Sequence record: OP778609 | DNA: 64,000 bases | Source of the DNA: Escherichia phage A73 | Strand: one strand, 5' to 3' | In this document: positions 1,733 to 26,753 of the stretch, piece after piece | How positions within the stretch are numbered: the stretch's first letter is position 1 | Layout of the letters: each line of letters opens with the position of its first letter | Position numbers and translations under genes: made by a program | Notes under the pieces: model-generated | Told to the model about the DNA's origin: nothing | The model's database searches: none | The model's input: the letters and a program-made list of their open reading frames with translations, nothing else

Positions 1733-1745
1733 ATTGAGGTGTAAG

Positions 1746-2711: not shown

Positions 2712-2990
2712 ATGACTATTACTAAATTATCCACCGAAGAGATCACCAACATTCTGACTACTAATCTTGAAGATTGGAAGCGTGAAGCTGATTTGCAAGC
2801 AACCTGTAAGCTGAATACAGAGCTAACATCAGACGATATTGAAACGATCGTCCATGCTGATTTCTATGATGCTTTGCATGATGATTCTATCATCCTTGAA
2901 ACGATGCTAGATAATGCCTGGATTAATCCCGATTTGGCGGCGTATGGTCGTAGCACCTTTATCACTATCCACAATATTTATAACCGTTAA
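2712..2990 (+). CDS. hypothetical protein (92 aa), paralog of 3662-3940
   Basis: N-terminus MTITKLSTEEI...TTNLE.WKREAD and C-terminus FITIH.IYN shared with the ORF at 3662. Confidence 0.6.
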   Translation: MTITKLSTEEITNILTTNLEDWKREADLQATCKLNTELTSDDIETIVHADFYDALHDDSIILETMLDNAWINPDLAAYGRSTFITIHNIYNR

Positions 2991-3117
2991 GAGGCGATAA
3001 ATGGTCCTGTAACAGCCTAAAACGGCGAAAGTATGCAATCACCTTACTTGACGATATTCTACGCACTGGCTTACACTGGGGCTTTTAAAAGGGCACAAAA
3101 TAATTCGAAAAAAGTAG

Positions 3118-3146
3118 TTGACGGCAATTAATAATCTGGTAAAGTG
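3118..3146 (+). promoter_or_regulatory. sigma70-like promoter (TTGACG, weak -10) with conserved leader
   Basis: -35 at 3118-3123; downstream ACGTAAGGCGGCAATAGCGCCGCC leader hairpin at 3156-3173. Confidence 0.4.
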
Positions 3147-3192
3147 TACCACGTAAGGCGGCAATAGCGCCGCCATTAAAGAGATAAACGAA

Positions 3193-3579
3193 ATGAAACA
3201 AGAAATCATCAATGAAATTATTAGCGGTTACAAAGAAGCCTTTATTTTCGCTGAATCAGCAACAGATCAGCACGGGGAGTATATCGATAACCTTGATCCT
3301 TATGACTTCTCCCAGGATGCAAACGACCGGATCGCCCAGGATGTGACAGCCTTTATCAATGCTAATGTTGCCGCTATCTCTGAAGCGATGAGCGACGGCG
3401 CTACAGCCAACCAGATCGGGAATGATTTACATTTTACCCGTAACGGTCACGGTGTAGGCTTTTGGGATCGCCCTGAAATATACACCACTAACACGGCTAA
3501 CCGTTTGAGCAATGCCGCTAAATTAATGCCTAACGTGTCAGCTTACATTGGGAAAGATAATCTGATTTATATTGAATAA
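3193..3579 (+). CDS. hypothetical protein (128 aa)
   Basis: ATG after AAAGAG; acidic protein. Confidence 0.55.
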   Translation: MKQEIINEIISGYKEAFIFAESATDQHGEYIDNLDPYDFSQDANDRIAQDVTAFINANVAAISEAMSDGATANQIGNDLHFTRNGHGVGFWDRPEIYTTNTANRLSNAAKLMPNVSAYIGKDNLIYIE

Positions 3580-3661
3580 AAAGTATTGACAAGCTGAATC
3601 AACCTGATAAGATGTATCACATAGGGGCGACAAGCGCCCCGCCTAACAGAGAGATAGAATC

Positions 3662-3940
3662 ATGACCATCGCCAAATTATCCACCGAAGAAATCGAACAA
3701 GTGTTAACTACTAACCTGGAACAATGGAAACGTGAGGCAGATATACAATCAGCAAAATGGCTTAACGAGAAGTTAACACCGGATGATCTGAGTAAGATTA
3801 TAGATCCTCAATTCTATGAAGATATTCACGACACGGCGTTATCCGTTGAGGATGTACTCGATAAGCATTACATTGCTACTGATTTGCAGGTTTACGGGCG
3901 TAAAAACTTTATTACTATTCACGACATTTACAATAACTAA
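3662..3940 (+). CDS. hypothetical protein (92 aa), paralog of 2712-2990
   Basis: About half of residues identical to the ORF at 2712 along the full length. Confidence 0.6.
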   Translation: MTIAKLSTEEIEQVLTTNLEQWKREADIQSAKWLNEKLTPDDLSKIIDPQFYEDIHDTALSVEDVLDKHYIATDLQVYGRKNFITIHDIYNN

Positions 3941-3975
3941 GGGCGGCAACGCCCTACAACTAAAAGGGTAATATT

Positions 3976-4170
3976 ATGACGTTAGCAACATGCACCGGAT
4001 CAAAAATTGCTTGCTTTGAGTTTATGGAAGACTATGAAACGACAGCTATCACCGATCAATATATCACCGTGATCACGCGTGACGGTATCGCCTGGCATGT
4101 TCCGGTTTATGATGGGGATACCTATGAAGTCACCGACAGCGGCGGCAATACAGCTATCTTTGTTGTCTAA
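3976..4170 (+). CDS. hypothetical protein (64 aa)
   Basis: ATG after AAAGGG. Confidence 0.45.
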   Translation: MTLATCTGSKIACFEFMEDYETTAITDQYITVITRDGIAWHVPVYDGDTYEVTDSGGNTAIFVV

Positions 4171-4183
4171 GGGGGGAAACACT

Positions 4184-4411
4184 ATGCACAATAACATCAT
4201 TACCGATCGTGCCGCTACTATGCGCCCTGGCGATCGGGCACGTTTACAGATCGGCGCTTATCCGTTCCCTACCTATGACTTTTGCAAAGTAACCGCTATC
4301 GAAAACAATCCCTTTGATCCTGATACCGTGATCATCTGGTACGAAGGAAAGGGAAATAAATTTGAAGACATTTTGGGGCGGGATGAGCATATCAATATTA
4401 TTCGTTACTAA
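4184..4411 (+). CDS. hypothetical protein (75 aa)
   Basis: ATG at 4184 preceded by GGGGGG; the longer track ORF 4079-4411 overlaps the previous gene. Confidence 0.5.
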   Translation: MHNNIITDRAATMRPGDRARLQIGAYPFPTYDFCKVTAIENNPFDPDTVIIWYEGKGNKFEDILGRDEHINIIRY

Positions 4412-4529
4412 TCGCCACCTAACAGCCTAAATAGTAGGAGGCAATGCAATCCCCTACTCAATGAGAATGGAGCGCCCTGGCTTATGCTGGGGCGTTCTAC
4501 GTTACAGCAAAATAATTTTAAAAATACAC

Positions 4530-4558
4530 TTGACGTTCGCCAGGTGAGCGGGTATATT
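4530..4558 (+). promoter_or_regulatory. sigma70-like promoter (TTGACG-17-TATATT) with conserved leader hairpin
   Basis: -35 at 4530-4535, -10 at 4553-4558; leader ACGTAGGGCGGCAATAGTGCCGC at 4565-4587. Confidence 0.55.
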
Positions 4559-4607
4559 TTATCACGTAGGGCGGCAATAGTGCCGCTCACTGACTGGAGC
4601 TATCATT

Positions 4608-5009
4608 ATGGCCTTTACAATCACCTCTTACACTGACGTTGCCAACATTGCTAAAACTTTCGGCCCTGAAGCCCTTAAGTATGCGGTATCCAATGGTAAA
4701 CTAACGAAAGAGCAATGTTACCTGATTGGAAGCTGTAAACGTTGGGCGGCATCTCGTAACATCGAGATTGAAAACGTAAATGATGGTAACATCGAGTATA
4801 GCGTTGATGCAGTATTCAAGGCCGTGTATTTGGGCGGTATCTACAATACCAATCTTAATGATGTTCGTATCGTTCGCACTGGTTTTGGGGCTTATGATGT
4901 TCCAGTCCGCGAAGCTATGGAAAAAGGTTATATTAATCCAGCTATTTTAAGTATGATCATGACTGAGGCCAAAGAACGTAACGAAGTACGGGCCATCCTG
5001 GGCCTGTAA
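4608..5009 (+). CDS. hypothetical protein (133 aa)
   Basis: ATG after TGGAG RBS. Confidence 0.55.
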   Translation: MAFTITSYTDVANIAKTFGPEALKYAVSNGKLTKEQCYLIGSCKRWAASRNIEIENVNDGNIEYSVDAVFKAVYLGGIYNTNLNDVRIVRTGFGAYDVPVREAMEKGYINPAILSMIMTEAKERNEVRAILGL

Positions 5010-5040
5010 TGAAATATTAATCGAAAACTATTGACACGGA

Positions 5041-5068
5041 TCGTCAATATGCTAATATTTATCACGTA
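5041..5068 (+). promoter_or_regulatory. sigma70-like promoter (TTGACA-16-TAATAT) with conserved leader hairpin
   Basis: -35 at 5041-5046; leader ACGTAGGGCGGCAATATCGCCGC at 5075-5096. Confidence 0.5.
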
Positions 5069-5113
5069 GGGCGGCAATATCGCCGCTCACCCCTTAAAAG
5101 AGCGAGATCTAAA

Positions 5114-5329
5114 ATGGCGTTAACAAAACAAGAAATCATCGACCGCATCAAAGAGTCAACTGGCGAGAATATTGGTAATGGTTTAATTGTTAAAGTTCTT
5201 GATTATTCAAATAATCCCCTGGCACCGGAACCAGTGGCTTACAAATTATCCTGGATATCCGTATTTAGTGGTAAGCGTACAAGATGCGTATACTATCCGA
5301 ACACCGTGGGGCGTCAGTACTGTAAATAA
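5114..5329 (+). CDS. hypothetical protein (71 aa)
   Basis: ATG after AAAGAG; followed by hairpin GGGGCGGCAACGCCCC at 5351-5366. Confidence 0.5.
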   Translation: MALTKQEIIDRIKESTGENIGNGLIVKVLDYSNNPLAPEPVAYKLSWISVFSGKRTRCVYYPNTVGRQYCK

Positions 5330-5389
5330 AGGGCACTTTAATATTAATAAGGGGCGGCAACGCCCCAGGTCAACCAAAGGGAAACAACA

Positions 5390-5596
5390 ATGAGTATTGC
5401 AATGATTAGCTCATCCGACATTAAAAAGGCTTTATCTGTATTGCGCTATCACCATAGAAGGAAGGTAATCAATGACGAGAGCTATCTAGATTCATCGTTA
5501 GAAAGCGATACGTTGGAAGCCATTTCAAAATTATCTGATTTGCATAAACGCATGACCGAAAGCAACCGATCCGACTTCATAGGGGGCGAAATATGA
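5390..5596 (+). CDS. hypothetical protein (68 aa), MSIAM N-terminus
   Basis: ATG after AAGGGA; shares the N-terminal pentapeptide with the next ORF. Confidence 0.5.
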   Translation: MSIAMISSSDIKKALSVLRYHHRRKVINDESYLDSSLESDTLEAISKLSDLHKRMTESNRSDFIGGEI

Positions 5597-5853
5597 GTAT
5601 TGCAATGTTAATCAATACCGTAGAAGAGGCGAAAGCATTAAAGTTACGTGTTGAACTGATTGATCAACCAGGTGGAGATCTCCTTGTACAAATCTATCCC
5701 CCAAAGGATGATTCTGGCGCTTATGATTGGTGCTACTCTGACACGTTCGAACAAGTAGACATTAAAGCAATAACATCATTTATCAACAGGGCTATACTTG
5801 AGCAAACGATAGAACTTAACGGGATGTTAAAAACACCCTGGCACATTTACTGA
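5593..5853 (+). CDS. hypothetical protein (86 aa), MSIAM N-terminus
   Basis: ATG overlapping the upstream stop; AGGGGG RBS. Confidence 0.5.
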   Translation: MSIAMLINTVEEAKALKLRVELIDQPGGDLLVQIYPPKDDSGAYDWCYSDTFEQVDIKAITSFINRAILEQTIELNGMLKTPWHIY

Positions 5854-5863
5854 GTTCGACAAA

Positions 5864-5891
5864 AGGGCTTGACTTGTTCAGCCCTTTTTTG
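5864..5891 (+). terminator. rho-independent terminator
   Basis: Stem AGGGCT/AGCCCT followed by TTTTTT. Confidence 0.6.
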
Positions 5892-6029
5892 CTATTCTTA
5901 TCAAACGGGCGGCACCTGGGAACAGGGGGAGGTAATCACTGGACGACTCCGCTATACAGTGATAGTAAATAGCTATCAATAATCTCCAAAAATAAAATAA
6001 AACCTATCGAGTCTTTACAATTCTTTCTG

Positions 6030-6058
6030 TTGACACAACAACCGCATTACAGTATTAT
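6030..6058 (+). promoter_or_regulatory. sigma70-like promoter (TTGACA-17-TATTAT)
   Basis: -35 at 6030-6035, -10 at 6053-6058, then CTCGTAGGGC leader motif. Confidence 0.55.
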
Positions 6059-6061
6059 TTA

Positions 6062-6330
6062 TCTCGTAGGGCAGCGAAGCAGTGATGTAAAGTAGTTACT
6101 CTATGATGTAAGTTCTGAGAAGTCGAATCCGATAAAGTATCAGAAAGTTTCTAAGTTTTCGAATCGTCCAGATGAAAAAGGCTGGCAAGTGTTGAGAAAG
6201 GGCACGTTGAGTAAGTCCTGAACAGGGGCGCTCCTAGACACCTTCTACTGAGATTGCGATCGAAGTGTTAAACTGTGAGAAACAAAAGAGCGCTAGGAAA
6301 GAAAGAAACAAGAAAAGAAGTTAAAAAGAT
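6062..6330 (+). ncRNA. candidate untranslated transcript / sRNA
   Basis: About 270 nt downstream of a strong promoter with no ORF longer than 7 codons; the next promoter (6333) serves the gene at 6407. Confidence 0.2.
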
Positions 6331-6332
6331 TG

Positions 6333-6362
6333 TTGACACAAAAGTAAGTTGTATACTATTAT
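6333..6362 (+). promoter_or_regulatory. sigma70-like promoter (TTGACA-18-TATTAT)
   Basis: -35 at 6333-6338; CTCGTAGGGC leader follows. Confidence 0.45.
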
Positions 6363-6406
6363 ATCTCTCGTAGGGCAAACATTCAAAACATCAAAAAGGG
6401 TACAAA

Positions 6407-6682
6407 ATGTTACAACTTAACGCTAAATTAGACAAAGAAATCACTGAATTTTGGGATATGGTAGTAGCTACTGATGTGGACGGTGTAGCAAGTCCTTACC
6501 TCAATAACATCGAGTATCACAATGTTGCCGCTATCAATGCAGAACACAAAGAGAAAGGCGGTGCTGATAAATTTGCTAAAAGCAATGGCTTCACTGATGC
6601 TAATCACATGATGCAATCAGTATTGTGGCAAGCTCAAGAAGATTTCGAAGAAAAAACTCTTGAATTTGCCAGACGCTCATAA
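6407..6682 (+). CDS. hypothetical protein (91 aa)
   Basis: ATG after AAAGGG; followed by hairpin GGGCCGAAAGGCCC at 6697-6710. Confidence 0.55.
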   Translation: MLQLNAKLDKEITEFWDMVVATDVDGVASPYLNNIEYHNVAAINAEHKEKGGADKFAKSNGFTDANHMMQSVLWQAQEDFEEKTLEFARRS

Positions 6683-6737
6683 TAGAATAATCAAACGGGC
6701 CGAAAGGCCCACTAACTGACCTAACAGGATTAACATC

Positions 6738-7007
6738 ATGAATCGCATCGACCAGCTTAAAGTAGTTCAGCATATGGCTTACCGTATCCTTGAAGTTCAG
6801 AAAGGGAGCAAAAAAGAAGTATGTGAGAAGGCTTATAAGGTATTCAGCCACAAAGCTGATGATTGGAAGTTGCAGAAAGTCAAAAAGGCCGATATCCTGG
6901 GCTACCTTGAGGATGAGATCCGCCTTGCGGAGCAAAAACAGATTCGTCGTGATGAGGCAGAACATAACCAGGCCTGGCAGGAGTGGTTTAAAGGGTATAC
7001 TAAGTAA
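6738..7007 (+). CDS. hypothetical protein (89 aa)
   Basis: ATG after ACAGGA; Lys/Glu-rich helical protein. Confidence 0.55.
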   Translation: MNRIDQLKVVQHMAYRILEVQKGSKKEVCEKAYKVFSHKADDWKLQKVKKADILGYLEDEIRLAEQKQIRRDEAEHNQAWQEWFKGYTK

Positions 7008-7016
7008 TATCGAAAA

Positions 7017-7040
7017 CGGGGGGTTATATGCCCCCTTTGT
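7017..7040 (+). terminator. rho-independent terminator
   Basis: GGGGGG/CCCCC hairpin followed by a T-run. Confidence 0.55.
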
Positions 7041-7070
7041 AAATATTCCATTAATTTACAATTCCCTCTA

Positions 7071-7100
7071 TTGACAAGAAAGTCAATTTTGCAGTATAGT
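7071..7100 (+). promoter_or_regulatory. sigma70-like promoter (TTGACA-18-TATAGT)
   Basis: -35 at 7071-7076, -10 at 7095-7100. Confidence 0.5.
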
Positions 7101-7140
7101 TATATCTCTAGCAGCAAACAACAAAACAAAGGACAACGAC

Positions 7141-7560
7141 ATGAACATCAAATCAACTAATCCGGCTTACTCTTTCGATAACGCTTTTTGTCACGGTAGT
7201 GCCGCCAAAGGTTTTGAAATTGATGGTAAACTGGTTATCGTCAATGTTGATGGGGAAGAGGTTGCAGTTTATCCAGTGGCAGACGTTAAAAGCCGTTTAC
7301 AATGCCGCATGGATGTTAACGAATACCGCCTTGATCCGGTTCGTGTCGTTGCCCTGGTACTGGAAGAAGAAATTAAAGCAATGCAGCACAGCAACAAATT
7401 TATCGGCGATGCACAGGACAACATGAAAGTAAGCCGCCACAAAGTTAATGAAGCACTGAAAGATTTTGGCTTTAAAGATCTAGTTATCAAACGTGATGAA
7501 AAATTTCGCTTTCGTAATGATCTGGCAAATCGCTACTATGAAATCTATGAAGCACTTTAA
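7141..7560 (+). CDS. hypothetical protein (139 aa)
   Basis: ATG after AAAGGA; longest ORF in this block. Confidence 0.6.
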   Translation: MNIKSTNPAYSFDNAFCHGSAAKGFEIDGKLVIVNVDGEEVAVYPVADVKSRLQCRMDVNEYRLDPVRVVALVLEEEIKAMQHSNKFIGDAQDNMKVSRHKVNEALKDFGFKDLVIKRDEKFRFRNDLANRYYEIYEAL

Positions 7561-7575
7561 GAGGTAAGACAACAA

Positions 7576-7598
7576 GGGGCCGCAATAGCGGCCTTTTC
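7576..7598 (+). terminator. rho-independent terminator (GGCCGC-AATA-GCGGCC + TTTT)
   Basis: Hairpin with the GCAATAG loop shared by the leader hairpins, followed by a T-run. Confidence 0.6.
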
Positions 7599-7600
7599 TA

Positions 7601-7629
7601 TTGACACCTGCTAATCATTCCTTTAATAT
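7601..7629 (+). promoter_or_regulatory. sigma70-like promoter (TTGACA-17-TAATAT)
   Basis: -35 at 7601-7606, -10 at 7624-7629; CCTTGTAGGGC leader. Confidence 0.55.
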
Positions 7630-7680
7630 GTACCTTGTAGGGCAAGCAATAACGCAAGCCCATAAATAGGACAAACTATC

Positions 7681-7878
7681 ATGACCATCGCTAATGAACT
7701 GATCGCTGTATTGAATGAAGCCAAATCTAATCAGATCGATGTACAGATCAAAGAATTGCCCAATGGCCTGATCGGTTGCACTTGCACCTGCTTCGGAAGT
7801 GACTACACAGAGGTAAGCTCTCTAGAATCTCTCATTCGTCACTTGAAATCAATAGTTGAAGATTGGAGAATCATCTAA
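7681..7878 (+). CDS. hypothetical protein (65 aa)
   Basis: ATG after TAGGA; followed by hairpin GGGCCGCAATAGTGGCCC at 7887-7904. Confidence 0.5.
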   Translation: MTIANELIAVLNEAKSNQIDVQIKELPNGLIGCTCTCFGSDYTEVSSLESLIRHLKSIVEDWRII

Positions 7879-8494: not shown

Positions 8495-8653
8495 TCTTCT
8501 TTCCCAAAATAAATTTTTTCTTGCTTTTATTGCCAGAGTATGGCGGGGGGAATGTTGAAAAAATAGATCTTGACTGGTCAACATACGATACATCCTATCT
8601 TCTTTCCCAAAATAAATTTTTTCTTGCTTTTATTGCCAGAGTATGGCGGGGGC
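8495..8653. repeat. two copies of a ~55-bp direct repeat
   Basis: TCTTCTTTCCCAAAATAAATTTTTTCTTGCTTTTATTGCCAGAGTATGGCGGGGG at 8495-8550 and again at 8598-8653; partial third copy of TTGCCAGAGTATGG near 8113. Confidence 0.85.
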
Positions 8654-17642: not shown

Positions 17643-18102
17643 CCAACCCTGGTTTCAGTTTTGGAAGATCTCTTATAAACTCAGGATAGAGGACATTAAC
17701 GAAGTCAATCTCATCATCTGTGGGTTTTTGAATATCTTCGAAATACTCGTCAAGATTGAATATCTGCCAATCCTTACACCCTGCCTTTCGGACACCCATG
17801 AAGATTTCATTGTTACAGGTAGCCATCCAGGAGATCCTAGATCCTTTACCATTCGCATTCGGCAATGTTGAAACACAGAAGCGTGGTACTTCCTGAACCT
17901 TAAAACCCTCGTCATAGTATCCACGACCACGTTGAAATTTAAACTTGGTCTTTCCCACTCTTTGACTAATCTTCATATCTCGGCGAAAGCTGTGGTCCCC
18001 CGTATAGATCAGTTGACGAAGACACTGAGTATATCTGATCTTTTTCCAATTCCAATCTCGAATGAGTATTTCATAGACTTCCTTAAATGCTTCATACGCC
18101 AT
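17599..18102 (-). CDS. hypothetical protein (167 aa)
   Basis: ORF. Confidence 0.55.
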   Translation of the reverse strand: MAYEAFKEVYEILIRDWNWKKIRYTQCLRQLIYTGDHSFRRDMKISQRVGKTKFKFQRGRGYYDEGFKVQEVPRFCVSTLPNANGKGSRISWMATCNNEIFMGVRKAGCKDWQIFNLDEYFEDIQKPTDDEIDFVNVLYPEFIRDLPKLKPGLDEIHKELRWRFGGY

Positions 18103-18331
18103 CGGAGGATTCCTTATCTAGAGCACCAACAATCTCGAACTTTGCTACGCCTAAAACAACCACATGACCCAAGGATTGTACACCTGTCCACGGAGTACCA
18201 TTCCTCTTAGGTCGCTTACCAGTTACATCGCAGAAATCATTCCGCATTTCTGTTGCATCAAACAACTCGCCTTTCGGAAAAACATCTTTGAAGTCAGCGA
18301 TCACGTTAAGACATTTCAGTTTCATATTCAA
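18092..18331 (-). CDS. hypothetical protein (79 aa)
   Basis: ORF. Confidence 0.45.
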   Translation of the reverse strand: MNMKLKCLNVIADFKDVFPKGELFDATEMRNDFCDVTGKRPKRNGTPWTGVQSLGHVVVLGVAKFEIVGALDKESSDGV

Positions 18332-18650
18332 ACACTCCTCTCTCTAATCTTTGTTTGGCAAGTAACTCCCTTTGTGCTCTAAGTGGCATCCTGAAAAATA
18401 TCACAACATTCTCCAAATCCGCTGCCCGTTTTTTAAGCCCTTTGGTGAATTTACCTTCCCGCTTAATTGCATCATATATACCCCTGTACTCCTCTTCAAT
18501 GGAGTTGTCTTCAAATATCTGGTTGGATACCATACTATCAATCTCCATACCGAGAGCTTCAAAGCTATACCAGTCTACATGTTCTTCTGTAACAGGACCT
18601 CTTTCTTTGTACACTTGTCCAGTTATTTCATTAACTACGATCGTTGTCAT
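18306..18650 (-). CDS. hypothetical acidic protein (114 aa), paralog of 18631-18975
   Basis: Start MTTIVVNE with AAGGAGA RBS; C-terminal FFRMPLRAQRELL motif shared with the next gene. Confidence 0.5.
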   Translation of the reverse strand: MTTIVVNEITGQVYKERGPVTEEHVDWYSFEALGMEIDSMVSNQIFEDNSIEEEYRGIYDAIKREGKFTKGLKKRAADLENVVIFFRMPLRAQRELLAKQRLERGVFEYETEMS

Positions 18651-18975
18651 TGGAGTATCTCCTTGCATTATACGGCATCCTGAAAAAGTTTAAAAGGTTG
18701 TAGATAGCAGCAACCCTCTCTCTTACCTTTTCGTCAGAGAAACAATCAGGACCTTCGCTGCAAAGTTTAAAATCTATATCTTCCCACTCAGCGACCACAG
18801 ATTCGTCTTCGAAAACTCCCTTTTCAAACATCATTCGAATCTCCATCTCCATACCCTTGAAGATTGTAAAAGTAACATCTTCAGGATCAAGGTATGATAC
18901 ATTGTCTATAAAGAGGCCCCTTTCGGGATAAATGACCATATGCAAAATAATCCTCCTGTGTCCAATATAATCCAC
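18631..18975 (-). CDS. hypothetical acidic protein (up to 114 aa), paralog of 18306-18650
   Basis: C-terminal NFFRMPYNARRY motif; start may be the internal MVIYPERG after AGGAGG. Confidence 0.45.
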   Translation of the reverse strand: MDYIGHRRIILHMVIYPERGLFIDNVSYLDPEDVTFTIFKGMEMEIRMMFEKGVFEDESVVAEWEDIDFKLCSEGPDCFSDEKVRERVAAIYNLLNFFRMPYNARRYSNDNDRS

Positions 18976-19063
18976 CCAGAAGCGATTTTGACGAGGTTTT
19001 CTTAAGATAATGATAAATCACCTTACCTCGTCGTAGACCTCGTTAGAATCGTTCTGAGAGCGT

Positions 19064-19321
19064 TTAAGCCATACCGAGCAAATTCATCTCTTTTAACAGG
19101 CCTTCCAAGGTAGCATTAAACAACACTGGCTTACCTTCCTCCAGCTTATTGAAGAAGATTTCATGAGTCTCATTGTCTATCTTCGCCATCTCTTTTACCA
19201 CTTCTTCTGACAAAAAGATATCGCTACCTCTTAACCCAGGGAACATTAAGAGGATTGCCGTTTTTGAATCAGTTGCCCAACCCTTTCCACCATCCAGACT
19301 GAATACCTTGATCATCATTTT
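19064..19321 (-). CDS. hypothetical protein (85 aa)
   Basis: Start MMIKVFS with GGAG RBS, directly after the upstream stop. Confidence 0.45.
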   Translation of the reverse strand, partial: KMMIKVFSLDGGKGWATDSKTAILLMFPGLRGSDIFLSEEVVKEMAKIDNETHEIFFNKLEEGKPVLFNATLEGLLKEMNLLGMA

Positions 19322-19616
19322 ACTCCAAATTAGCCAGTGCAGTTCGGACTTCAAGAAGAGTTGCCTCTCTTGACTCATTTCTTTCCGAGAAATCACGAAT
19401 TATCATCTTGTACTTCATTTCTTCTTCAGTACGGAGAATCTTCTGTTCGATCAACTTGTAAACTTTGTCCGCTCTTTCTGGAAACAACGCTGCAAAGAGA
19501 TTCCAGTCTTCCAATCGACCTTCGTAAGACTCTCCAGAGGTAAAGTACCGATCTCTTTCGATGCTGTCAACAAAATAATAACCGAATTCACCATAACGCC
19601 AAGTTTCATTTTTCAT
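19320..19616 (-). CDS. hypothetical protein (98 aa), paralog of 19778-20017
   Basis: Shared motif (R/E)YFTS...EGR.EDWN(L/F)...(F/H)PE(R/K). Confidence 0.5.
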   Translation of the reverse strand: MKNETWRYGEFGYYFVDSIERDRYFTSGESYEGRLEDWNLFAALFPERADKVYKLIEQKILRTEEEMKYKMIIRDFSERNESREATLLEVRTALANLE

Positions 19617-19774
19617 TTGATGTACCGCGCCGCAGCAGTGCCGATAAGGAATCCAGCAGGAACTGCGACGATGATAGCTTCAACCATTTTCAGGTCCGCT
19701 GCAACACAAGCTGCACCAACAACAACAGAACCAGCCCAGATAGCAATTACACGTTTCAAAAATTTAGTATTCAT
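19613..19774 (-). CDS. small membrane protein (53 aa, two TM segments)
   Basis: ATG at 19774 with GGAGA RBS; below the track cutoff; hydrophobic VIAIWAGSVVVGAACVAA and AIIVAVPAGFLIGTAAA. Confidence 0.4.
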   Translation of the reverse strand: MNTKFLKRVIAIWAGSVVVGAACVAADLKMVEAIIVAVPAGFLIGTAAARYIK

Positions 19775-19777
19775 TCG

Positions 19778-20017
19778 TTAGTCTCCTGATTTTGTTAAGT
19801 TTTCTTTTATTTTTACGTATTCAATTAAAGAGTTTGCAAGTTCACCATCGATTTTCTCACAAACCATTAGTATCTCTCTTACCTTTTCGGGATGAACAGA
19901 CTCATAAAAGTTCCAATCCTCTGTTCTTCCTTCTGGAGTTTTAGAAGTGAAGTATTCTTCTCTGTCTTGCTCCGGTAAGAGATAATATACAAGATTCAGC
20001 CTTTTATCGTCAAGCAC
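19778..20017 (-). CDS. hypothetical protein (79 aa), paralog of 19320-19616
   Basis: EYFTSKTPEGRTEDWNFYESVHPEK aligns with RYFTSGESYEGRLEDWNLFAALFPER. Confidence 0.5.
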   Translation of the reverse strand: MLDDKRLNLVYYLLPEQDREEYFTSKTPEGRTEDWNFYESVHPEKVREILMVCEKIDGELANSLIEYVKIKENLTKSGD

Positions 20018-20026
20018 TTTATCACC

Positions 20027-20401
20027 TTATTCGTAAAAAAGTTTATCCGCTTGCTCATTCAACCAACCCTGGCGAAAAGCCCCCTTGAGTACCTCTGCCC
20101 ACTTCGGATTTGCTGCCTCTAAGAGAAGAATTTCTTCTTTCTCTATGTTCATAGGATCAGCAAAGAAATCCAAAATCTGTTCATTAAATATACCCTCTAT
20201 CAAGATCCCTTTATATTTCAACGTCAAACGTTTTGTCATAAAACCTTGAGATAACAAAGCCTCCTCCACATCGAGTTTCGTAGTTGGAGGGTTTGGAAAA
20301 GGAAAGCCCGTCATAGGTGTTGGCGATGCACCTGTCTTCACAAAGGTATTCCCTCCAGTATTATTGAAGAAACCTTTCGCATTTTTATCATAAAGCGACA
20401 T
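20027..20401 (-). CDS. hypothetical protein (124 aa)
   Basis: ORF. Confidence 0.5.
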   Translation of the reverse strand: MSLYDKNAKGFFNNTGGNTFVKTGASPTPMTGFPFPNPPTTKLDVEEALLSQGFMTKRLTLKYKGILIEGIFNEQILDFFADPMNIEKEEILLLEAANPKWAEVLKGAFRQGWLNEQADKLFYE

Positions 20402-20404
20402 ATT

Positions 20405-20842
20405 TCATACCCCCTCTTGAATTTTTATCTCTGCCTCGTCCAAAGCTTCACCCATTGCAAGGATATACCTTGAAATTTCAGGAAACAACGCTTCAAACAT
20501 CTCTATCTCTTCTTCAAGTATATCCGTTGGATCGAGGAAATACTCTTCAAGGACTATCCGCTTTGTCCCACTCTTGTTGCCATAAGTAACAAAAACGAAA
20601 CGATCAGGTTTGCCAATAGAATCTTTGGAGGTTCTCCATTGGAAAAGATGCCTGTTTGAACTTATGTTTATCCTTTTGTCAGCCTTGTCCAGCGGGATTC
20701 TAAAACTTACGGATGTTGACATTCCTTCGGATTGAGTCCATTTTTCACTCTTCTTAAAAATATTGTTCCGGTATCTGTTTTTACCTAAGGCATTAAAAGT
20801 CCACTGCCTGCTCAATCTCTCGATTATCTCTTTAGTTTTCAA
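20405..20842 (-). CDS. hypothetical protein (145 aa)
   Basis: ORF; stop overlaps the next start. Confidence 0.5.
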   Translation of the reverse strand: MKTKEIIERLSRQWTFNALGKNRYRNNIFKKSEKWTQSEGMSTSVSFRIPLDKADKRINISSNRHLFQWRTSKDSIGKPDRFVFVTYGNKSGTKRIVLEEYFLDPTDILEEEIEMFEALFPEISRYILAMGEALDEAEIKIQEGV

Positions 20843-21360
20843 AACGGTATGTCCTCGTCAACAATAAATTTTATAGCATTCTTTACAGCCGCTTTATTCA
20901 GATGTTGAACACGCTGGAAGAACATTAGGTTCAAGTCAAGAAGAATATCATCATCTCCGTACAACGCCGTGAAAAGATCAAGCTCTTCATCTGTCGGATG
21001 CGTGGGATTCTCAAATAAGCCCTCAAACACCACCTGGGCCTCATTTCTTTTAGCCAGCGTGGTTGAGTCTCGATAGATATTTAATACCGTGTGTACATCA
21101 TCTACGCTTAGGATTTTGACACATTCCAGATCTCCTGTGTCACCATCGAGATAAAGAGTGATCGCAGGAGTTGACCAATTTGATTCACTTATTGCATAAA
21201 CGTAGATGCTTTTGCGATTACCAACTGCAATAGACTCTTCAATTTTCTTTTCTGCCGCCTTAAAGAAAGGTTGGTGTTTGATCCAATGCTCCCAACCAAT
21301 CCAACGAGCACCCTTACCATACGCATTCAGCACATGATTCTCAATGTTACGTTTACTCAT
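20839..21360 (-). CDS. hypothetical protein (173 aa)
   Basis: ORF; terminator downstream of the block at 21374-21406. Confidence 0.55.
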   Translation of the reverse strand: MSKRNIENHVLNAYGKGARWIGWEHWIKHQPFFKAAEKKIEESIAVGNRKSIYVYAISESNWSTPAITLYLDGDTGDLECVKILSVDDVHTVLNIYRDSTTLAKRNEAQVVFEGLFENPTHPTDEELDLFTALYGDDDILLDLNLMFFQRVQHLNKAAVKNAIKFIVDEDIPF

Positions 21361-21373
21361 TTAAAACCCCCAT

Positions 21374-21406
21374 AAAAGAAAAGCCAGCCACCTTTCGGTG
21401 ACTGGC
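21374..21406 (-). terminator. rho-independent terminator
   Basis: Hairpin GCCAGTCACC-GAAA-GGTGGCTGGC followed by a U-run on the minus strand. Confidence 0.55.
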
Positions 21407-21412
21407 CTAGAG

Positions 21413-21880
21413 TTAGCTACTAATCACCACGAATGCAGTAACTATAGCATACAGAAATCCAATTGCAACAAAAATTATCATAATGGGGTCAGAGGTTACT
21501 CGCTTAAGTTTTCCTAAGAAAGTTGATCGGTATTTGTGTTCCTTCTCCATTTTGTTTATCAAAATGATGAAAGAGTTGATATGAATATCTTCAGCACTCT
21601 CTGCAAAAGGTGTGTACTTGAACGTACCTTCTGTATTTGCAACAAAGCTGCGATGATACTTTTTACCGTCATAACTTTCTATAAGAAGACCATCCTTTGT
21701 CACCCGATAACTGACTGAACGGAACTTGTCATAAAAAACGTATGCCCTGAATCCATCTTGATCGGGAACAGCCTTTCTGACGTAGCCGTCAAAAAACTCC
21801 AATCTCTTTCCAGAATTCAGTTCCAAGTTGTCAGCTAACATAGGGAGTTGACTTACGTATGTAAAGTACATAATGATCAT
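21413..21880 (-). CDS. C-terminally membrane-anchored protein (155 aa)
   Basis: C-terminal hydrophobic segment IMIIFVAIGFLYAIVTAFVVISS. Confidence 0.5.
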   Translation of the reverse strand: MIIMYFTYVSQLPMLADNLELNSGKRLEFFDGYVRKAVPDQDGFRAYVFYDKFRSVSYRVTKDGLLIESYDGKKYHRSFVANTEGTFKYTPFAESAEDIHINSFIILINKMEKEHKYRSTFLGKLKRVTSDPIMIIFVAIGFLYAIVTAFVVISS

Positions 21881-22072
21881 CCTTCCACTAAGCTGAAATC
21901 ATTTTATCATATTATGAAAAAATACAACAGCGAAGATCGGTCATGAACACTATGTTGTTAATTTTTACAACAGGACTCCAAAAAAGTATTTAAATCACTT
22001 AAATCGATTTTAATACATAGAAAATACCTATGGACCAGATCTGACCCATAGGCTATACCTTAATGTGAAATT

Positions 22073-22651
22073 TTATTCATTTCCCCGATATTTTTGAATT
22101 GCGATCGAAGTCCTTGGTTCAGCCAGTCCAGTTCCATATGCATACCATTTGCCAGTGAGTGTTTTTCGAGCACCGTAGGACCCAATCTCCATGTCGTCAC
22201 AATAAACATCGTAACCGATCGGGGTCTTAACTAAAAAGAGTACATTACGAGGAATCCCTAAGAGGGTAAACATCGATATGGCATCTTTTGCGATCTCGTG
22301 AGAAATCTTCTCTGCATTCTTTTTACTGGTTGCACTTCTAAACAGTTCCATCTTTAAGAAGATATTGAAATGAATATCATCAAGAACCATCTCATCACGG
22401 AAGCATGGGGTCACAGCCATCCAACTGCCATCTTCCAACTTCCCTTCTTTGTCGAGTTGGAGGAATGATTGCTCTGCGGAAGCCACTGCATATTTCCCGT
22501 TCTGGACAATTCGAAGATCAGTAACATCTTCGGGGCATGTATGGTCCATAGCATCATCATCCACATAGCTTGGGACAACCTTATCATTGAAACCTTTACA
22601 TTTCCACCAACTGTGGGCATCAATAAACAATGTGAAGTCGATGTTTGACAT
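22073..22651 (-). CDS. hypothetical protein (192 aa)
   Basis: Start MSNIDFTLF with GAGGCT RBS; function not recognised. Confidence 0.5.
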   Translation of the reverse strand: MSNIDFTLFIDAHSWWKCKGFNDKVVPSYVDDDAMDHTCPEDVTDLRIVQNGKYAVASAEQSFLQLDKEGKLEDGSWMAVTPCFRDEMVLDDIHFNIFLKMELFRSATSKKNAEKISHEIAKDAISMFTLLGIPRNVLFLVKTPIGYDVYCDDMEIGSYGARKTLTGKWYAYGTGLAEPRTSIAIQKYRGNE

Positions 22652-22652
22652 T

Positions 22653-23156
22653 TTAGCCTCGCTTACCATTCTGGAATGCACGTTTAGTAATTTTTGACAT
22701 AACCATCAGGTCTTCTATTGAAGTGCTTGGATGATACTTATTCAGGTAGGCTTCCATAGCACCGACCAGATCAGAAAGCTCTACCAACTCCATGATCTTA
22801 CATTTTTGTTTAGCTGCATCCTTGAGTTCATCAAGTTCTTCTTGAATCTTAGTGATCTCTCCAAGCTCTCCGCGAGGGAAAGTATCCAGATGATAACCAG
22901 GTTTTTGTTCTTCAATACCCTCATGTCCGACAACACGAAATTTTCCGGCAGCGAAACGCCAAACACCTTCAAAATACACAATGTAATGTTCCGACTCTAC
23001 AATGAAGATAGTGTCGAAATTTTTAAATTTAAAAAATCCTTCGACAAGATTATCTTCTGTACTGAAACTTCCTAAGAAGTTGAGTTCTTGCTCCGTATGA
23101 AATTCCATAACCATATTTTCGTTCTGGAGTTTCGTCAGCAATTTTAAAATTTTCAT
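22653..23156 (-). CDS. putative MazG-like nucleotide pyrophosphohydrolase (167 aa)
   Basis: C-terminal half has an acidic helical pattern (EITKIQEELDELKDAAK...ELVELSDLVGAMEAYL) resembling MazG/dCTPase; start MKILKLL with AGGAGAG RBS. Confidence 0.35.
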   Translation of the reverse strand: MKILKLLTKLQNENMVMEFHTEQELNFLGSFSTEDNLVEGFFKFKNFDTIFIVESEHYIVYFEGVWRFAAGKFRVVGHEGIEEQKPGYHLDTFPRGELGEITKIQEELDELKDAAKQKCKIMELVELSDLVGAMEAYLNKYHPSTSIEDLMVMSKITKRAFQNGKRG

Positions 23157-23167
23157 TTTCTCTCCTC

Positions 23168-23656
23168 TTATGGGCAACACCGTGGAGATCTTCCACAGAA
23201 GAATTGCCAATTGGTTTCTGAGTCTTTGTAATTTACAAACCCTATCCTTCCGCACCCTTGTCCACTACAAACAGCCTCACGAGGATGATAGTCTATACTA
23301 CAAGAGTGTGGATGGTCAAATGCTTCTCGTATTTCAACACATAGTCGGCTTAACCAGGCGAACATTTTTGGCATAGAAGCCTCAAGAAGTTTAAGTTCGT
23401 CGATCGTAGGTTTGTCTTTCTCAAGGAAGAAGTCATCTATCTCGGAAAACAAAATAACGTTTTGAACTATCCCGTCAGTTACCTTGTAAGAGAACTCCTC
23501 AGTAAGCCTCACGGTAACTTCCTCTATCAGTTCTTTTTCATTATCTTGATCTTTTGCCAGTCTTTCCTCAATCCATCGGATAATGAAGAATCTTTCTCTC
23601 TGAACATCCATGTTCAAAGTGTTGATTATTTTTTCATAGATTAGGTTTCCTTCCAT
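23168..23656 (-). CDS. hypothetical Cys-rich protein (162 aa)
   Basis: C-terminal cluster of Cys/His (HPHSCSIDYHP...CSGQGCGR...CGRSPRCCP). Confidence 0.5.
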   Translation of the reverse strand: MEGNLIYEKIINTLNMDVQRERFFIIRWIEERLAKDQDNEKELIEEVTVRLTEEFSYKVTDGIVQNVILFSEIDDFFLEKDKPTIDELKLLEASMPKMFAWLSRLCVEIREAFDHPHSCSIDYHPREAVCSGQGCGRIGFVNYKDSETNWQFFCGRSPRCCP

Positions 23657-24768
23657 ACCTTGTCTTGTGCCTCCAGGATAAGTTTTTCAACAATCTTCAG
23701 ATCTGTTTTCTTTGGTAAGCTCGATTGCTTATAAAGAACATCTGTGATCATTTTATCTTTTTCTTCAGCCCAGTCAACAATTTCTTCATAGCGGTATTCA
23801 CCATTTCGGATTGCGAGGAGTTCTTCAGCGTCTGGTCGATTCACTAAAACTTTACCTTCTGTGAGGATTTCTTCACCCATCCGAAGAAGCCGGACCAAAT
23901 GCATAGCATGTTTAGTGTCGTAACCGAACTTCTCTTCCAGTTCATGACGCTTCTCGTTACGATTCTTAACCCATTCCCAATAGTTGTGGTGTTTCTCCTT
24001 GGCCCATTTATGATCGTCAGCACAATACTTAACAATCATCAGTGTCTTACCTCTTTTAACTTCATCTGGGATTTCTTCATAGTCCAGCTTACGGATAGAA
24101 CCATCTTTGTTAAACATAGGTTCAACATTTTCACGACGATCCTCTACAACGCCGTAAATGTTACTGCCGTAATGAACCAAAGTACAGAAGCCTTCCATGT
24201 TTTTAAATTTACGAACAAAGTCTTCGTACTTCAACTCACCTTCTCCGAGATAGCTCTGCACCAGACGGAAATAGTCAAATTGAGTTGGTGGCTCTTTTGG
24301 TTGCGGATTATTAATGTGTTTGTTGTGACCCTTGATCCGCTTTAACTGAGACATTGCATAACCACTGAAGCGAAATGCAACTTCACGAGACAGTAAGGAG
24401 TAGAAATGTTCTTTCATCTCTTTCCAAGCTTCGTGCTCGTACAATGTGGCTTTCGGATCAGTAAAACCCAGTTCAATGATATTTGGGTTCATCTTCGAAA
24501 ACAGTTGAAGGAAAGTTCCCAATTCGTAGATCTTAGCATCCTCTTCACCAGGGATGTTTAATTCAGTAACCTCTTTGAATGGGGTACGAACCACATTTGG
24601 GGTTGCAACAAAAACCCCACGGATATCAATATCACTACCTTCGTTATTCGTACCATACGCATGAGATCCTGCCAGACTCAACATCAGTACCTTCGCCACG
24701 TCTGGATGATTTTCCATCTTCTCTACGATACTTTTTACCTTTCCAGCACTCACAACTGAATTTTCCAT
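23641..24768 (-). CDS. Pol-beta-superfamily nucleotidyltransferase-fold protein (375 aa)
   Basis: N-terminal GS-x-AYGT-x(4)-GSDIDIRGVF (GS...D-x-D minimal NTase signature) followed by a long helical domain; GGAGG RBS. Confidence 0.5.
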   Translation of the reverse strand: MENSVVSAGKVKSIVEKMENHPDVAKVLMLSLAGSHAYGTNNEGSDIDIRGVFVATPNVVRTPFKEVTELNIPGEEDAKIYELGTFLQLFSKMNPNIIELGFTDPKATLYEHEAWKEMKEHFYSLLSREVAFRFSGYAMSQLKRIKGHNKHINNPQPKEPPTQFDYFRLVQSYLGEGELKYEDFVRKFKNMEGFCTLVHYGSNIYGVVEDRRENVEPMFNKDGSIRKLDYEEIPDEVKRGKTLMIVKYCADDHKWAKEKHHNYWEWVKNRNEKRHELEEKFGYDTKHAMHLVRLLRMGEEILTEGKVLVNRPDAEELLAIRNGEYRYEEIVDWAEEKDKMITDVLYKQSSLPKKTDLKIVEKLILEAQDKVWKET

Positions 24769-24858
24769 TTATCCTCCAATCATGTAAGTCACACAAGCCA
24801 ACCCAGTTGGCCTGTTTAATCTTTATAAAGTTTACGCAGCTTGTGCAGTCTTTTTTAT

Positions 24859-25254
24859 TTATAGGCATTTCACACCATAAATGATCATCAATACAACAAG
24901 TGTCAGTGTATAGATCAAACTCCCATAAAGTCCATGACTGGTGATTTTAAGCTTTTTCTTAAAGCACATCATTGTACTATAAATTACACCAGTCCAGTGA
25001 ATCACTAAAATCGCGGTGGCAATATCTGAAACATTACCCGCCCAAAGCATCAGAGAGTATGAGAGGTACATTGCAAAACCTGATAGCAGGAATGTAAACA
25101 AATAACCAATTACACTTTTCTTTTTCTGATATACGATTTTATTTTTCATGGTATCGATGTTCAGATTGTAATAGGCAACTGCCACTATCTGGATAATCAG
25201 CCCCAAGATAAAGAAAGAGATCAGTGTAACGTATTCAAAAATTGGTGCAGTCAT
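24859..25254 (-). CDS. integral membrane protein (131 aa, about 4 TM segments)
   Basis: Four hydrophobic stretches along the protein. Confidence 0.5.
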   Translation of the reverse strand: MTAPIFEYVTLISFFILGLIIQIVAVAYYNLNIDTMKNKIVYQKKKSVIGYLFTFLLSGFAMYLSYSLMLWAGNVSDIATAILVIHWTGVIYSTMMCFKKKLKITSHGLYGSLIYTLTLVVLMIIYGVKCL

Positions 25255-25652
25255 TATAATTTCTCCTCAATAATTTCAGAAATGAGATTCGAGATCTCGA
25301 AAGTTTCTAACTCTTCGACGTGTGACAAGCGCTGGAGGCGCTCGATAACAAAGTCTTTCTTCACAAATACATCCGACAAATGCTCAATGTCCTGCTTACC
25401 ACGCATTCCGCTAACCAACTGCTTGTATCGGATGAGTTCAATATACTCCTCTTTAGACATTACTGTCAAGCGTTCATCTGCACAAATATGCAAAAATACT
25501 TGCTTGCTGTCCCAGTCAAATCCTCTGTACACTGCCTCTACTTCACGGCGTGGTGTCCCGCCCAGTGTTACATGACCAACCTCAACAGGGATAGATACCT
25601 GATCATCAGGTCGGCACTGCTGCAACTCCTCAATCAATTCAGAAACTTTCAT
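25254..25652 (-). CDS. hypothetical protein (132 aa)
   Basis: ORF; start overlaps the upstream stop. Confidence 0.5.
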   Translation of the reverse strand: MKVSELIEELQQCRPDDQVSIPVEVGHVTLGGTPRREVEAVYRGFDWDSKQVFLHICADERLTVMSKEEYIELIRYKQLVSGMRGKQDIEHLSDVFVKKDFVIERLQRLSHVEELETFEISNLISEIIEEKL

Positions 25653-25654
25653 AG

Positions 25655-26110
25655 TTACCCCTGCTTAAGCTTGAAAGATTTAAATGCTTCGATAAAGTCC
25701 ATTTCTTTTTGCGTATACTTATGATCGATTGTATCAGCGAAAAGAGGGCAACGACCATCAACCAACTTCACATCCCACAGATGTTGAGGGAGAATAAATG
25801 CAATGGCTGTAAGTGCACCATTCAAAGAATCATTCTCCTCGCAGAAAAATGCGTAAGGAATCTTCTCTATGTTTGGAGCTAAAAATCCTTCTGCAAAATT
25901 AAGCATCTTAGATTGATAGCCTCCGTTCAACAAGATCATTGTTTGGTCTTTGCTTTGCCACTGATCTACAAGGTTGTATCTGTCATCATATCGATCGGCA
26001 TAGGCAAAGCCATAATGACCTACAAGGTTTGCTGCTGCATGTGCTGCTTGGATACCTGCTTGGATTCCCATCATATAGCTGTTTACCAATACGTACATCC
26101 GAGTTTTCAA
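25655..26110 (-). CDS. hypothetical protein with tentative PTH2-like (peptidyl-tRNA hydrolase 2) fold (151 aa)
   Basis: N-terminal M-x-VLV-x(3)-MG-x(4)-I-QAAHAA resembles the PTH2 core; TTG start 5 nt after GGAGG; weak. Confidence 0.3.
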   Translation of the reverse strand: MKTRMYVLVNSYMMGIQAGIQAAHAAANLVGHYGFAYADRYDDRYNLVDQWQSKDQTMILLNGGYQSKMLNFAEGFLAPNIEKIPYAFFCEENDSLNGALTAIAFILPQHLWDVKLVDGRCPLFADTIDHKYTQKEMDFIEAFKSFKLKQG

Positions 26111-26427
26111 TTCTTACCTCCGAAAATTCTTTTTGCAAATTTTTCATTACCTAACGTCATGTTGTAGAAAACTATAATTGAATAGACAATCCACGCAAGG
26201 ACATAAAATAAAATCAAGAAAGGCCAGCCCACAAACCAAAACACTGTCATTATTAACCAGCCCGTCATAAGGAGTTTATAATTAACATTCCCGTGATTTA
26301 AAGGGTCAAGTAAGTTACTGTTCTCTGGCAGGGTGATACGAAACCCACCTTGACGAAGCTTGATCAAAAAGAACCAAGCAGCAGAACTTATAATGCAACA
26401 TAAAATATATATCAGTAATCCTGTCAT
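26107..26427 (-). CDS. small integral membrane protein, paralog A (106 aa)
   Basis: Shares W-F-x-LIKLRQ-x-GF-x-I motif and TM topology with the adjacent gene. Confidence 0.55.
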   Translation of the reverse strand: MTGLLIYILCCIISSAAWFFLIKLRQGGFRITLPENSNLLDPLNHGNVNYKLLMTGWLIMTVFWFVGWPFLILFYVLAWIVYSIIVFYNMTLGNEKFAKRIFGGKN

Positions 26428-26753
26428 TTTTTAACTCCGAAGATCTTAGATAGTAATTTATCATTCCCGATAGTTACACCACAAAAACTTTTTACTCCGT
26501 ATACTAGATACGACCCGATTGTAACACAGATAATGATCGGATAAACAAGATACCAAAAGAATGTTGCAAGTATCCACCCTGCCATCACCATACGTAAATT
26601 TACATTTTCGTTATTCAGTGGCTCCAGGATATAAATATCCTCACAATCTTTTGGGAAGGGGATGTTGAACCCCTTCTGCCGTAATTTGATCAGTAAGAAC
26701 CAAAGTGGGCAACTAATAAGACAACCTATTAAATAACCTTCAACCATTTTCAC
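26424..26753 (-). CDS. small integral membrane protein, paralog B (109 aa)
   Basis: Tandem duplicate of 26107-26427. Confidence 0.55.
   Translation of the reverse strand: MKMVEGYLIGCLISCPLWFLLIKLRQKGFNIPFPKDCEDIYILEPLNNENVNLRMVMAGWILATFFWYLVYPIIICVTIGSYLVYGVKSFCGVTIGNDKLLSKIFGVKK

Follow-up and report, generated by a model that had tools for sequence, protein, structure and literature searches.

Look-alike gene pairs in the accessory region of Escherichia phage A73 probably stem from four separate processes

The look-alike genes and the region that holds them

We analysed a stretch of 64,000 nucleotides from Escherichia phage A73 (sequence record OP778609; the whole stretch is called the window below). 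An earlier reading made from the letters alone (the sequence-only reading) had listed six pairs of similar genes in it, here called A, B, C, D, E and HNH (genes F1 and F2), and had taken them as recurrent local duplication of small early genes, a mark of rapidly evolving host-takeover or anti-defence loci. Our assessment is that these look-alikes probably come from four separate, well-known processes, namely old duplication, cassette exchange, spread of HNH endonuclease genes and duplication of a junction. The region shows the normal accessory-region behaviour of a large lytic phage and is not a special fast-duplicating locus. The members of the six pairs, with lengths in amino acids (aa), are the following.

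2712..2990, plus strand: A1, 92 aa, all-alpha, phrog_14947, phAPEC8-type subfamily
3662..3940, plus strand: A2, 92 aa, phrog_14947, 121Q/PsgM04F-type subfamily, single-gene cassette
5390..5596, plus strand: B1, 68 aa, phrog_9599
5593..5853, plus strand: B2, 86 aa, phrog_20600, MSIA start native to its family
18306..18650, minus strand: C1, 114 aa, genus-restricted ORFan
18631..18939, minus strand: C2, tandem paralog of C1
19320..19616, minus strand: D1, 98 aa, genus-restricted ORFan
19778..20017, minus strand: D2, 79 aa, paralog of D1
26107..26427, minus strand: E1, 106 aa, three hydrophobic helices, conservative copy
26424..26747, minus strand: E2, 107 aa, tandem paralog of E1, divergent copy
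48684..49193, minus strand: F1, free-standing HNH_3 endonuclease gene, insertion relative to A7_1 and UPEC06
52876..53376, minus strand: F2, free-standing HNH_3 endonuclease gene, clean 515-bp insertion relative to A7_1 and UPEC06

By megablast, the relatives of the window are the E. coli myoviruses W70, A7_1, A5-4, UPEC06 and vB_EcoM-LTH01 (LTH01). This clade is the genus Septuagintavirus of the subfamily Vequintavirinae, in which A73, with 142,009 bp, is the fourth isolate and is described as a strain of W70 (PMC11370258). The genus paper (PMC11370258) makes no mention of paralogs, duplications, HNH genes or RCC1, and literature searches on paralogy in the rV5-like phages yielded no pertinent work. 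The window matches W70 at 99.9% identity between about 9.4 kb and at least 44 kb, and positions 685-7440 are 83-99% similar, in blocks, to the four relatives other than W70. Small genes on the plus strand form an array that begins ahead of position 1, reaches to about 8 kb and converges at 8-9.7 kb with a minus-strand block of about 50 kb. The latter starts near 59.9 kb and includes genes for a ligase, an exonuclease, ThyX, ribonucleotide reductase, a methyltransferase and a CCA-adding enzyme, and further on holds many small open reading frames (ORFs) and three RCC1-like genes. The plus strand carries five tRNA genes (Met, Tyr, Gly, Gln and Pro) at 61414-63124, and five is the number reported for the genus. 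Within its Septuagintavirus genome, the window represents the accessory and early-to-middle portion.

Similarity within the pairs

All twelve listed ORFs are present at the coordinates first given to them. We compared all 529 six-frame ORFs of at least 35 aa in the window against each other by BLASTP, and set the Smith-Waterman score of each pair against the scores of 2000 shuffles, with the following results for the significant pairs.

Pair A, 2712/3662: 56% identity over 91 aa, E 6e-34, shuffle z 42
Pair C, 18306/18631: 33% identity over 92 aa, E 5e-8, shuffle z 14.6
Pair D, 19320/19778: 37% identity over 46 aa, E 4e-8, shuffle z 13.7
Pair E, 26107/26424: 41% identity over 103 aa, E 8e-28, shuffle z 37
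Pair HNH (F1/F2), 48684/52876: 44% identity over 169 aa, E 1.5e-41, shuffle z 56

For these five pairs, and for a further pair at 60.3 kb described below, not one of the 2000 shuffles reached the real score (z 13.7-56). Pair B (5390/5593) scored 27 against a shuffle mean of 22, and 284 of the 2000 shuffles did as well (p ~0.11). Of the six listed pairs, A, C, D, E and HNH are therefore truly related, and B is not. Pair A had been called about half identical, which agrees with the alignment, and the shared motifs that had been pointed out in the other pairs (FFRMP..R.R in the tails of C, YFTS..EGR.EDWN in D and LIKLRQ.GF in E) each fall inside the alignment of their pair. The all-against-all search of the window ORFs found no recent or near-identical copies. 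As to spacing, C, E and the 60.3-kb pair consist of same-strand neighbours that overlap or abut, D has one 53-aa ORF between its members, and A1 and A2 are separated by one gene and two promoter modules. The description as tandem or near-tandem thus suits C, E, D and A but not the HNH genes, which are 3.7 kb apart.

Probable old duplicates in the minus-strand arrays

Local duplication is the best reading, from the sequences, for C, D and E, as the sequence-only reading had it, and also for the RCC1 genes, the 60.3-kb pair and a family of genes at 17.6-21.4 kb. The earlier list had missed the last two of these, which are laid out as follows.

60348-60572 / 60565-60783, plus strand: extra tandem pair, E 3e-8, z 13.7
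17599-18102, 20027-20401, 20405-20842 and 20839-21360, minus strand: family with a common C-terminal module, ..EYF.D....EEI..F..LYPE
17186-17401, 23168-23656 and D1/D2, minus strand: weak candidates for the same family

Old tandem duplication followed by divergence would have given rise to C1/C2, D1/D2, E1/E2, the 60.3-kb pair, the RCC1 genes and the 17.6-21.4 kb family. The old duplicate copies are 24-41% identical and follow one another head to tail in long, operon-like arrays on the minus strand; nearly every genus member has kept them, with one clean loss (C2 in LTH01). Homologs of C and D were found in the five genus members only. D1 and D2 are both present in five of five related genomes. 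LTH01 lacks exactly C2: its C2 leader runs straight into the C1 ATG at 18650, and this junction supports the C1 start at that position. C1 is annotated in UPEC06 and LTH01 and unannotated in W70, A7_1 and A5-4; it is intact in all five relatives, with dN/dS (the ratio of nonsynonymous to synonymous substitution rates) of 0.07-0.23 against its orthologs. This unannotated conserved gene is new for the genus, as is the family of four or more members that it has in common with Certrevirus.

That family emerged in the all-against-all search as weaker links among 17186, 17599, 20027, 20405 and 20839, and cross-matches to PHROG independently tie 17599 to 20405. Three of its members in the window have one-to-one orthologs in Certrevirus CR9 (gp192, gp203 and gp204), from which it follows that the expansion predates the split of the two genera. 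CR9 gp201-206 belong to the same family, which has at least eight members in CR9 and at least four in the window. A hidden Markov model (HMM) of the family members also scores 23168/gp210, gp200 and 17186 higher than any decoy. A BLASTP match of D1 to CR9 gp200 (E 3e-4) tentatively places D1 and D2 in this family. The accessory regions of large myoviruses are known to hold diverged tandem paralog arrays, and the CR9 gp201-gp206 block is the closest example here; it resembles the array of the window in its one-to-one orthologs and in its position and orientation downstream of a tRNA nucleotidyltransferase module. The two differ in the extra E copy and the genus-specific C and D pairs, which are on the Septuagintavirus side.

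E1 and E2 both match phrog_17692, both have three hydrophobic helices and a basic C-terminal tail, and are arranged in tandem with overlapping stop and start. Against CR9 gp216, E1 is 54% and E2 39% identical. The gene is single-copy in the examined Certrevirus phages, where it stands beside the tRNA nucleotidyltransferase gene, and in FBKp34, where it has another neighbourhood; it is double in all five Septuagintavirus-like genomes. The RCC1-like genes (window 12219-15717) number three in the window, W70, A5-4 and UPEC06 and four in LTH01 (28045-32714); in A7_1 only two are annotated, beside an unannotated gap of 1.4 kb.

Promoter-box-hairpin modules and the two A alleles

Seven modules lie on the plus strand at 3.1-7.7 kb, with their -35 elements at 3118, 3586, 4530, 5031, 6030, 6333 and 7601. 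Each consists of a sigma-70-like promoter followed, a few bases past the -10 element, by a conserved box, (A/C)TC(A/T)CGTAGGGC, and in most copies the box is followed by a GC hairpin such as GGCGGCAATAGCGCCGC. The whole pattern can be written as TTGACA, N17, TAnnnT, ..CGTAGGGC, GC hairpin. The window as a whole has 10 plus-strand copies of the box and a single minus-strand copy, and further GC hairpins are found at gene ends in the plus-strand array. The module ahead of A2 is the most informative copy.

3586..3650, plus strand: promoter-box-hairpin cassette ahead of A2, one of the seven modules

This copy is essentially identical in the window, UPEC06, PsgM04F and phAPEC8; in the latter two it stands upstream of their own A-family gene, and its string differs there only in the last one or two bases. 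In phAPEC8, the box and hairpin of the module are annotated as 'PHIRE promoters', and PsgM04F has the module ten times in 8 kb. The module was not found in the examined 121Q and CR9 loci.

A side observation concerns PsgM04F (OR584014.1), which is labelled a Pseudomonas coronafaciens phage. The early-gene array in this record has modules of the phAPEC8 type, and it encodes proteins with 81-97% identity to proteins of the present coliphage; either the host label or the relationships of the record merit a second look.

The A family itself was traced by tblastn with A1 and A2 against 50,697 phage records. It occurs in about 90 of them, nearly always in single copy, and its carriers include phAPEC8-like Stephanstirmvirinae as well as jumbo Asteriusvirus and RaK2-like phages. 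A1 is 98% identical to its counterpart in LTH01, 93% to that in UPEC06, 68-84% to the phAPEC8 type and ~54% to the jumbo-phage type. A2 is 97% identical to the PsgM04F protein, 85-88% to those of 121Q and PBECO4, and 46-58% to the phAPEC8 type. Synonymous divergence (dS) between A1 and A2 is ~2.1, at 56% protein identity. A neighbour-joining tree sets an A1 clade and an A2 clade apart, with foreign members in each; a word-indexed protein search for A1 gave 16 matches, which were used for alignments and are too shallow for deep phylogeny. A1 and A2 appear to be xenologs from two subfamilies and not the local duplicates that had been supposed, because each has closer relatives in other phage groups; they fall in different clades and are not each other's closest relatives. 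Within the genus, both genes occur together only in UPEC06, LTH01 has A1 only, and A7_1, A5-4 and W70 have neither. A2 and its promoter are missing from A7_1 and A5-4, where the flanks abut. A structural search with an AlphaFold2 (AF2) model of A1 (predicted local distance difference test score, pLDDT, 92.5) gave no match.

When the window was aligned with four relatives over 2.6-7.95 kb, 19 of the 21 alignment block ends fell at most 15 nt from a module; positions that close to a module account for 16% of the span and for 45% of its intergenic part. Adjacent alignment blocks overlap within modules at 3157-3173 and 4566-4599, which is what recombination within a repeat is expected to leave. 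Array blocks at 3178-7596 have ~83-86% nucleotide identity to many phAPEC8-like (Stephanstirmvirinae) genomes, and several ends of these blocks lie at or beside regulatory modules. Blocks shared at this level with phAPEC8-like genomes point to exchange between the two subfamilies. The unit exchanged would be a cassette that opens with a sigma-70-like promoter and the box (CGTAGGGC) with its GC hairpin, holds one small gene or a few, and closes with a terminal hairpin. By recombining at the repeated modules, such cassettes would move within and between phage lineages, and in this way A1 and A2, distant alleles of a single widespread family, may have come to lie 670 bp from each other.

The arrangement recalls the PeSL (promoter-early stem-loop) elements of T4-type phages, in which repeated sigma-70-like promoters with GC-rich stem-loops likewise stand ahead of small non-essential ORFans (Arbiol et al. 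2010, PMC2839356; Comeau et al. 2014, PMC4122927). One PeSL subclass also has its stem-loop downstream of the -10 element (PMC2839356). In the PeSL hyperplastic regions too, the ends of insertions, deletions and replacements between close relatives sit in the repeats. The differences are that those phages are of the T4-like lineage, whereas Vequintavirinae and Stephanstirmvirinae are concerned here, and that the present modules carry a box (CGTAGGGC) and a hairpin (GGCGGCAATAGCGCCGC) of their own, with promoter and terminator roles predicted from sequence. It is possible, although we put it at somewhat less than an even chance, that the modules form a PeSL-like exchange system outside the T4-like phages, moving small early genes including the A family between Septuagintavirus and phAPEC8-like Stephanstirmvirinae, and that C, D and E are genus-specific accessory innovations with host-directed functions. 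The shared modules offer a concrete recombination substrate, which would explain the movement of early genes between two subfamilies of therapeutic-candidate coliphages. A PeSL-like module common to phAPEC8-type phages is the most interesting by-product of this analysis; the processes themselves are known ones in large lytic phages and will not surprise a phage genomicist.

HNH endonuclease genes and the shared start of pair B

Both HNH genes match Pfam HNH_3 (E 2e-11 and 3e-15) and phrog_99 (E 3e-42 and 9e-39). They had been counted among the local duplicates; comparison of synteny indicates instead that they are insertions, absent at those sites in A7_1 and UPEC06. Window positions 52877-53392, which hold F2, correspond to 25 bp in both of these phages. 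F1 is an extra gene in the window beside 48169-48687 (minus strand), an unrelated endonuclease-like gene of the CxxC...H type that adjoins it and is 65% identical to a counterpart annotated 'homing endonuclease' in A7_1 and UPEC06, in flanking DNA of 93-98% identity. W70 has F1, F2 and a third copy, 38-42% identical, in a convergent intergenic region, and the window is without this third copy. F1 and F2 are thus predicted to be mobile free-standing endonuclease insertions, and free-standing HNH homing-endonuclease genes would have spread into intergenic sites to give F1, F2 and the third copy in W70.

The mob and seg genes of T4 are free-standing homing endonuclease genes of a large lytic phage. 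F1 and F2, which carry HNH_3, resemble genes of that type in being intergenic, in their presence or absence between near-identical genomes, and in the occurrence of several diverged copies per genome. They differ in that F1 lies directly beside a second, unrelated endonuclease-like gene (48169-48687) and in that homing is predicted here.

Pair B needs another explanation. The shared MSIAM start that had been noticed is real in the DNA, since B1 and B2 open with an identical 15 nt, ATGAGTATTGCAATG, but the proteins are unrelated by score and belong to different PHROG families. The B2 homologs phAPEC8 gp250 and PsgM04F CDS0116 start with MSIAT, and in those phages the hairpin directly ahead of them is the one that stands before B1 in the window. 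In PsgM04F, the B1 homolog starts with MNAEQ and is not adjacent to the B2 homolog, and the PHROG profile for B1 begins at residue 7 of B1. The shared MSIAM therefore appears to be a duplicated DNA junction and not protein homology. In the simplest reading, the body of B1 would have entered directly after the opening codons of B2, and 15 nt would have been duplicated in the process.

Rate of evolution, expression and function

Every pair member has a dN/dS of 0.02-0.5 against its orthologs, and the copies of C, D, E and the 60.3-kb pair are under purifying selection. The genes had been described as rapidly evolving, which does not hold for their sequences: besides these ratios, the paralogs are old (24-56% identity) and nearly all copies are kept in the five relatives. 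The fast part appears to be the gene content of the plus-strand array, through gain, loss and swap of cassettes. One such change is found in W70, which is without window positions 685-7440, i.e. about 6.75 kb with roughly 20 small genes, including A1, A2, B1 and B2. The junction (window 673-686 / 7439-7452; W70 7018-7090) shows the microhomology CAAAGTTAA..AAGC. Across it lies a chimeric ORF, W70_1, in which the ortholog of 438-689 continues in frame into the C-terminal ~35 residues of the ortholog of 7141-7560. W70 shows that the stretch can be spared on E. coli K-12, and this evidence that ~6.7 kb of small genes is not needed on the isolation host is likewise new for the genus.

The genes had also been called early. 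This is plausible for the plus-strand array, where 47 sigma-70-like sites were counted against 25.7 ± 4.4 expected, but this support does not extend to the minus-strand pairs, as there is no enrichment of such sites in 9.6-28.6 kb (44 against 44.9 expected). At 28.6 kb, ahead of the unit to which E belongs, a strong sigma-70-like site comes after a terminator. Across all pair members and the neighbouring genes, the only Pfam domains matched were HNH_3 and RCC1, and the PHROG matches of pair and family members are all of the class 'unknown function' except those of the HNH endonucleases. There is no characterised takeover or anti-defence homolog among the Pfam and PHROG matches of the pairs. 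A host-takeover or anti-defence role for these genes is plausible by position.

Alternative explanations

If all pairs were products of recurrent, ongoing local duplication in a rapidly evolving takeover or anti-defence locus, with gene-accordion-like expansion under arms-race selection, the arrangement of several of them would be accounted for, since strict tandem order is seen in C, E and the 60.3-kb pair and near-tandem order in D and A. Copy number does vary within the genus (RCC1 four in LTH01 and three elsewhere, C one or two, A zero, one or two), the pair families are of no known function, with C and D genus-restricted ORFans, and the plus-strand array is dispensable in W70. However, A1 and A2 are not sisters, B is not homologous and the HNH genes look like selfish insertions. 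The paralogs are deeply diverged, with saturated dS and low dN/dS and without near-identical copies, and the C-terminal-module family has one-to-one orthologs in another genus, so that its expansion predates the genus split. In the gene accordion of poxvirus type, a host-range gene is transiently amplified under selection, and its copies are near-identical and unstable. The window shares with it the tandem arrangement and some copy-number variation (RCC1, C), but its copies are 24-56% identical, individually conserved and under purifying selection. We consider ongoing duplication of this kind unlikely. That the similarities are due to chance or composition (transmembrane bias in E, short acidic motifs in C and D) or to artefacts of ORF calling or assembly is hardly credible: pair B is indeed non-significant, C1 is unannotated in three GenBank records and the D alignment covers 46 residues only, but the shuffles speak clearly against it for A, C, D, E, F and the 60.3-kb pair. 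In as many as five genomes sequenced independently, both members of each pair are intact, at dN/dS values far below 1, and A1 and A2 fall into one PHROG family, as do E1 and E2. Shuffles, conservation and dN/dS together rule this explanation out for five pairs.

For E, a different kind of explanation would make the duplication a division of labour and not an arms race, with E1 and E2 as a membrane pair of holin/antiholin type or for superinfection exclusion. Two proteins of ~106 aa with such helices and tails, encoded in overlapping tandem genes and conserved across the genus under strong purifying selection (dN/dS 0.04-0.09), would suit it, and the cell-lysis section consulted names no holin for this genus. 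Neither Pfam nor PHROG gives a lysis annotation for E1 or E2, however, the endolysin gene is 8 kb away, at 34.7 kb, and the neighbours are tRNA-related enzymes and a 'hydrolase' of unclear type, not a lytic context. The AF2 model of E1 is of low confidence (pLDDT 67, predicted template modelling score 0.41), too low for a fold search. Gene context does not back the holin/antiholin reading, and we regard the membrane-pair explanation as a whole as distinctly improbable. Some points also weigh against parts of the four-process reading that we prefer. In the neighbour-joining tree E1 and E2 are sisters, with E2 on a long branch, at a bootstrap of only 56%, and a grouping of E2 with the FBKp34 outgroup receives 44%, so an older duplication of E with loss in Certrevirus may apply; the word-indexed protein search for E1 gave 4 matches, which served for alignments but lack the depth for an old phylogeny. 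D is weakly linked to the 17.6-21.4 kb family (HMM E 0.012 for gp200 and 1.3 for D1; hhalign P 0.012). C and D are without outgroup homologs, and duplication in place is deduced for them from adjacency. The match between breakpoints and modules partly follows from the breakpoints being intergenic, and the block ends are not independent events.

Under the four-process reading, look-alikes in the raw sequence separate into true duplicates, horizontally swapped alleles and selfish nucleases, a separation that matters wherever paralog density is used to flag arms-race loci. The analysis shows directly the similarity statistics, the occurrence of the genes in the relatives, the phylogeny of the A family, selection and the match of breakpoints to modules; the mechanism of recombination, the activity of the homing endonucleases, the timing of expression and the roles of all the proteins are inferred from these.

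A further observation was made near the point where the two gene blocks converge. The 54 nt at 8550-8603 are a 100% identical inverted copy of part of an RCC1-like gene (12814-12867), and on either side of this insert stands one copy of a perfect 55-nt direct repeat (8495-8549 and 8598-8652). Each of the five relatives, W70 included, has a single copy of the 55-nt repeat and no insert. The structure at 8495-8652 could be a template-switch event or an assembly artefact.

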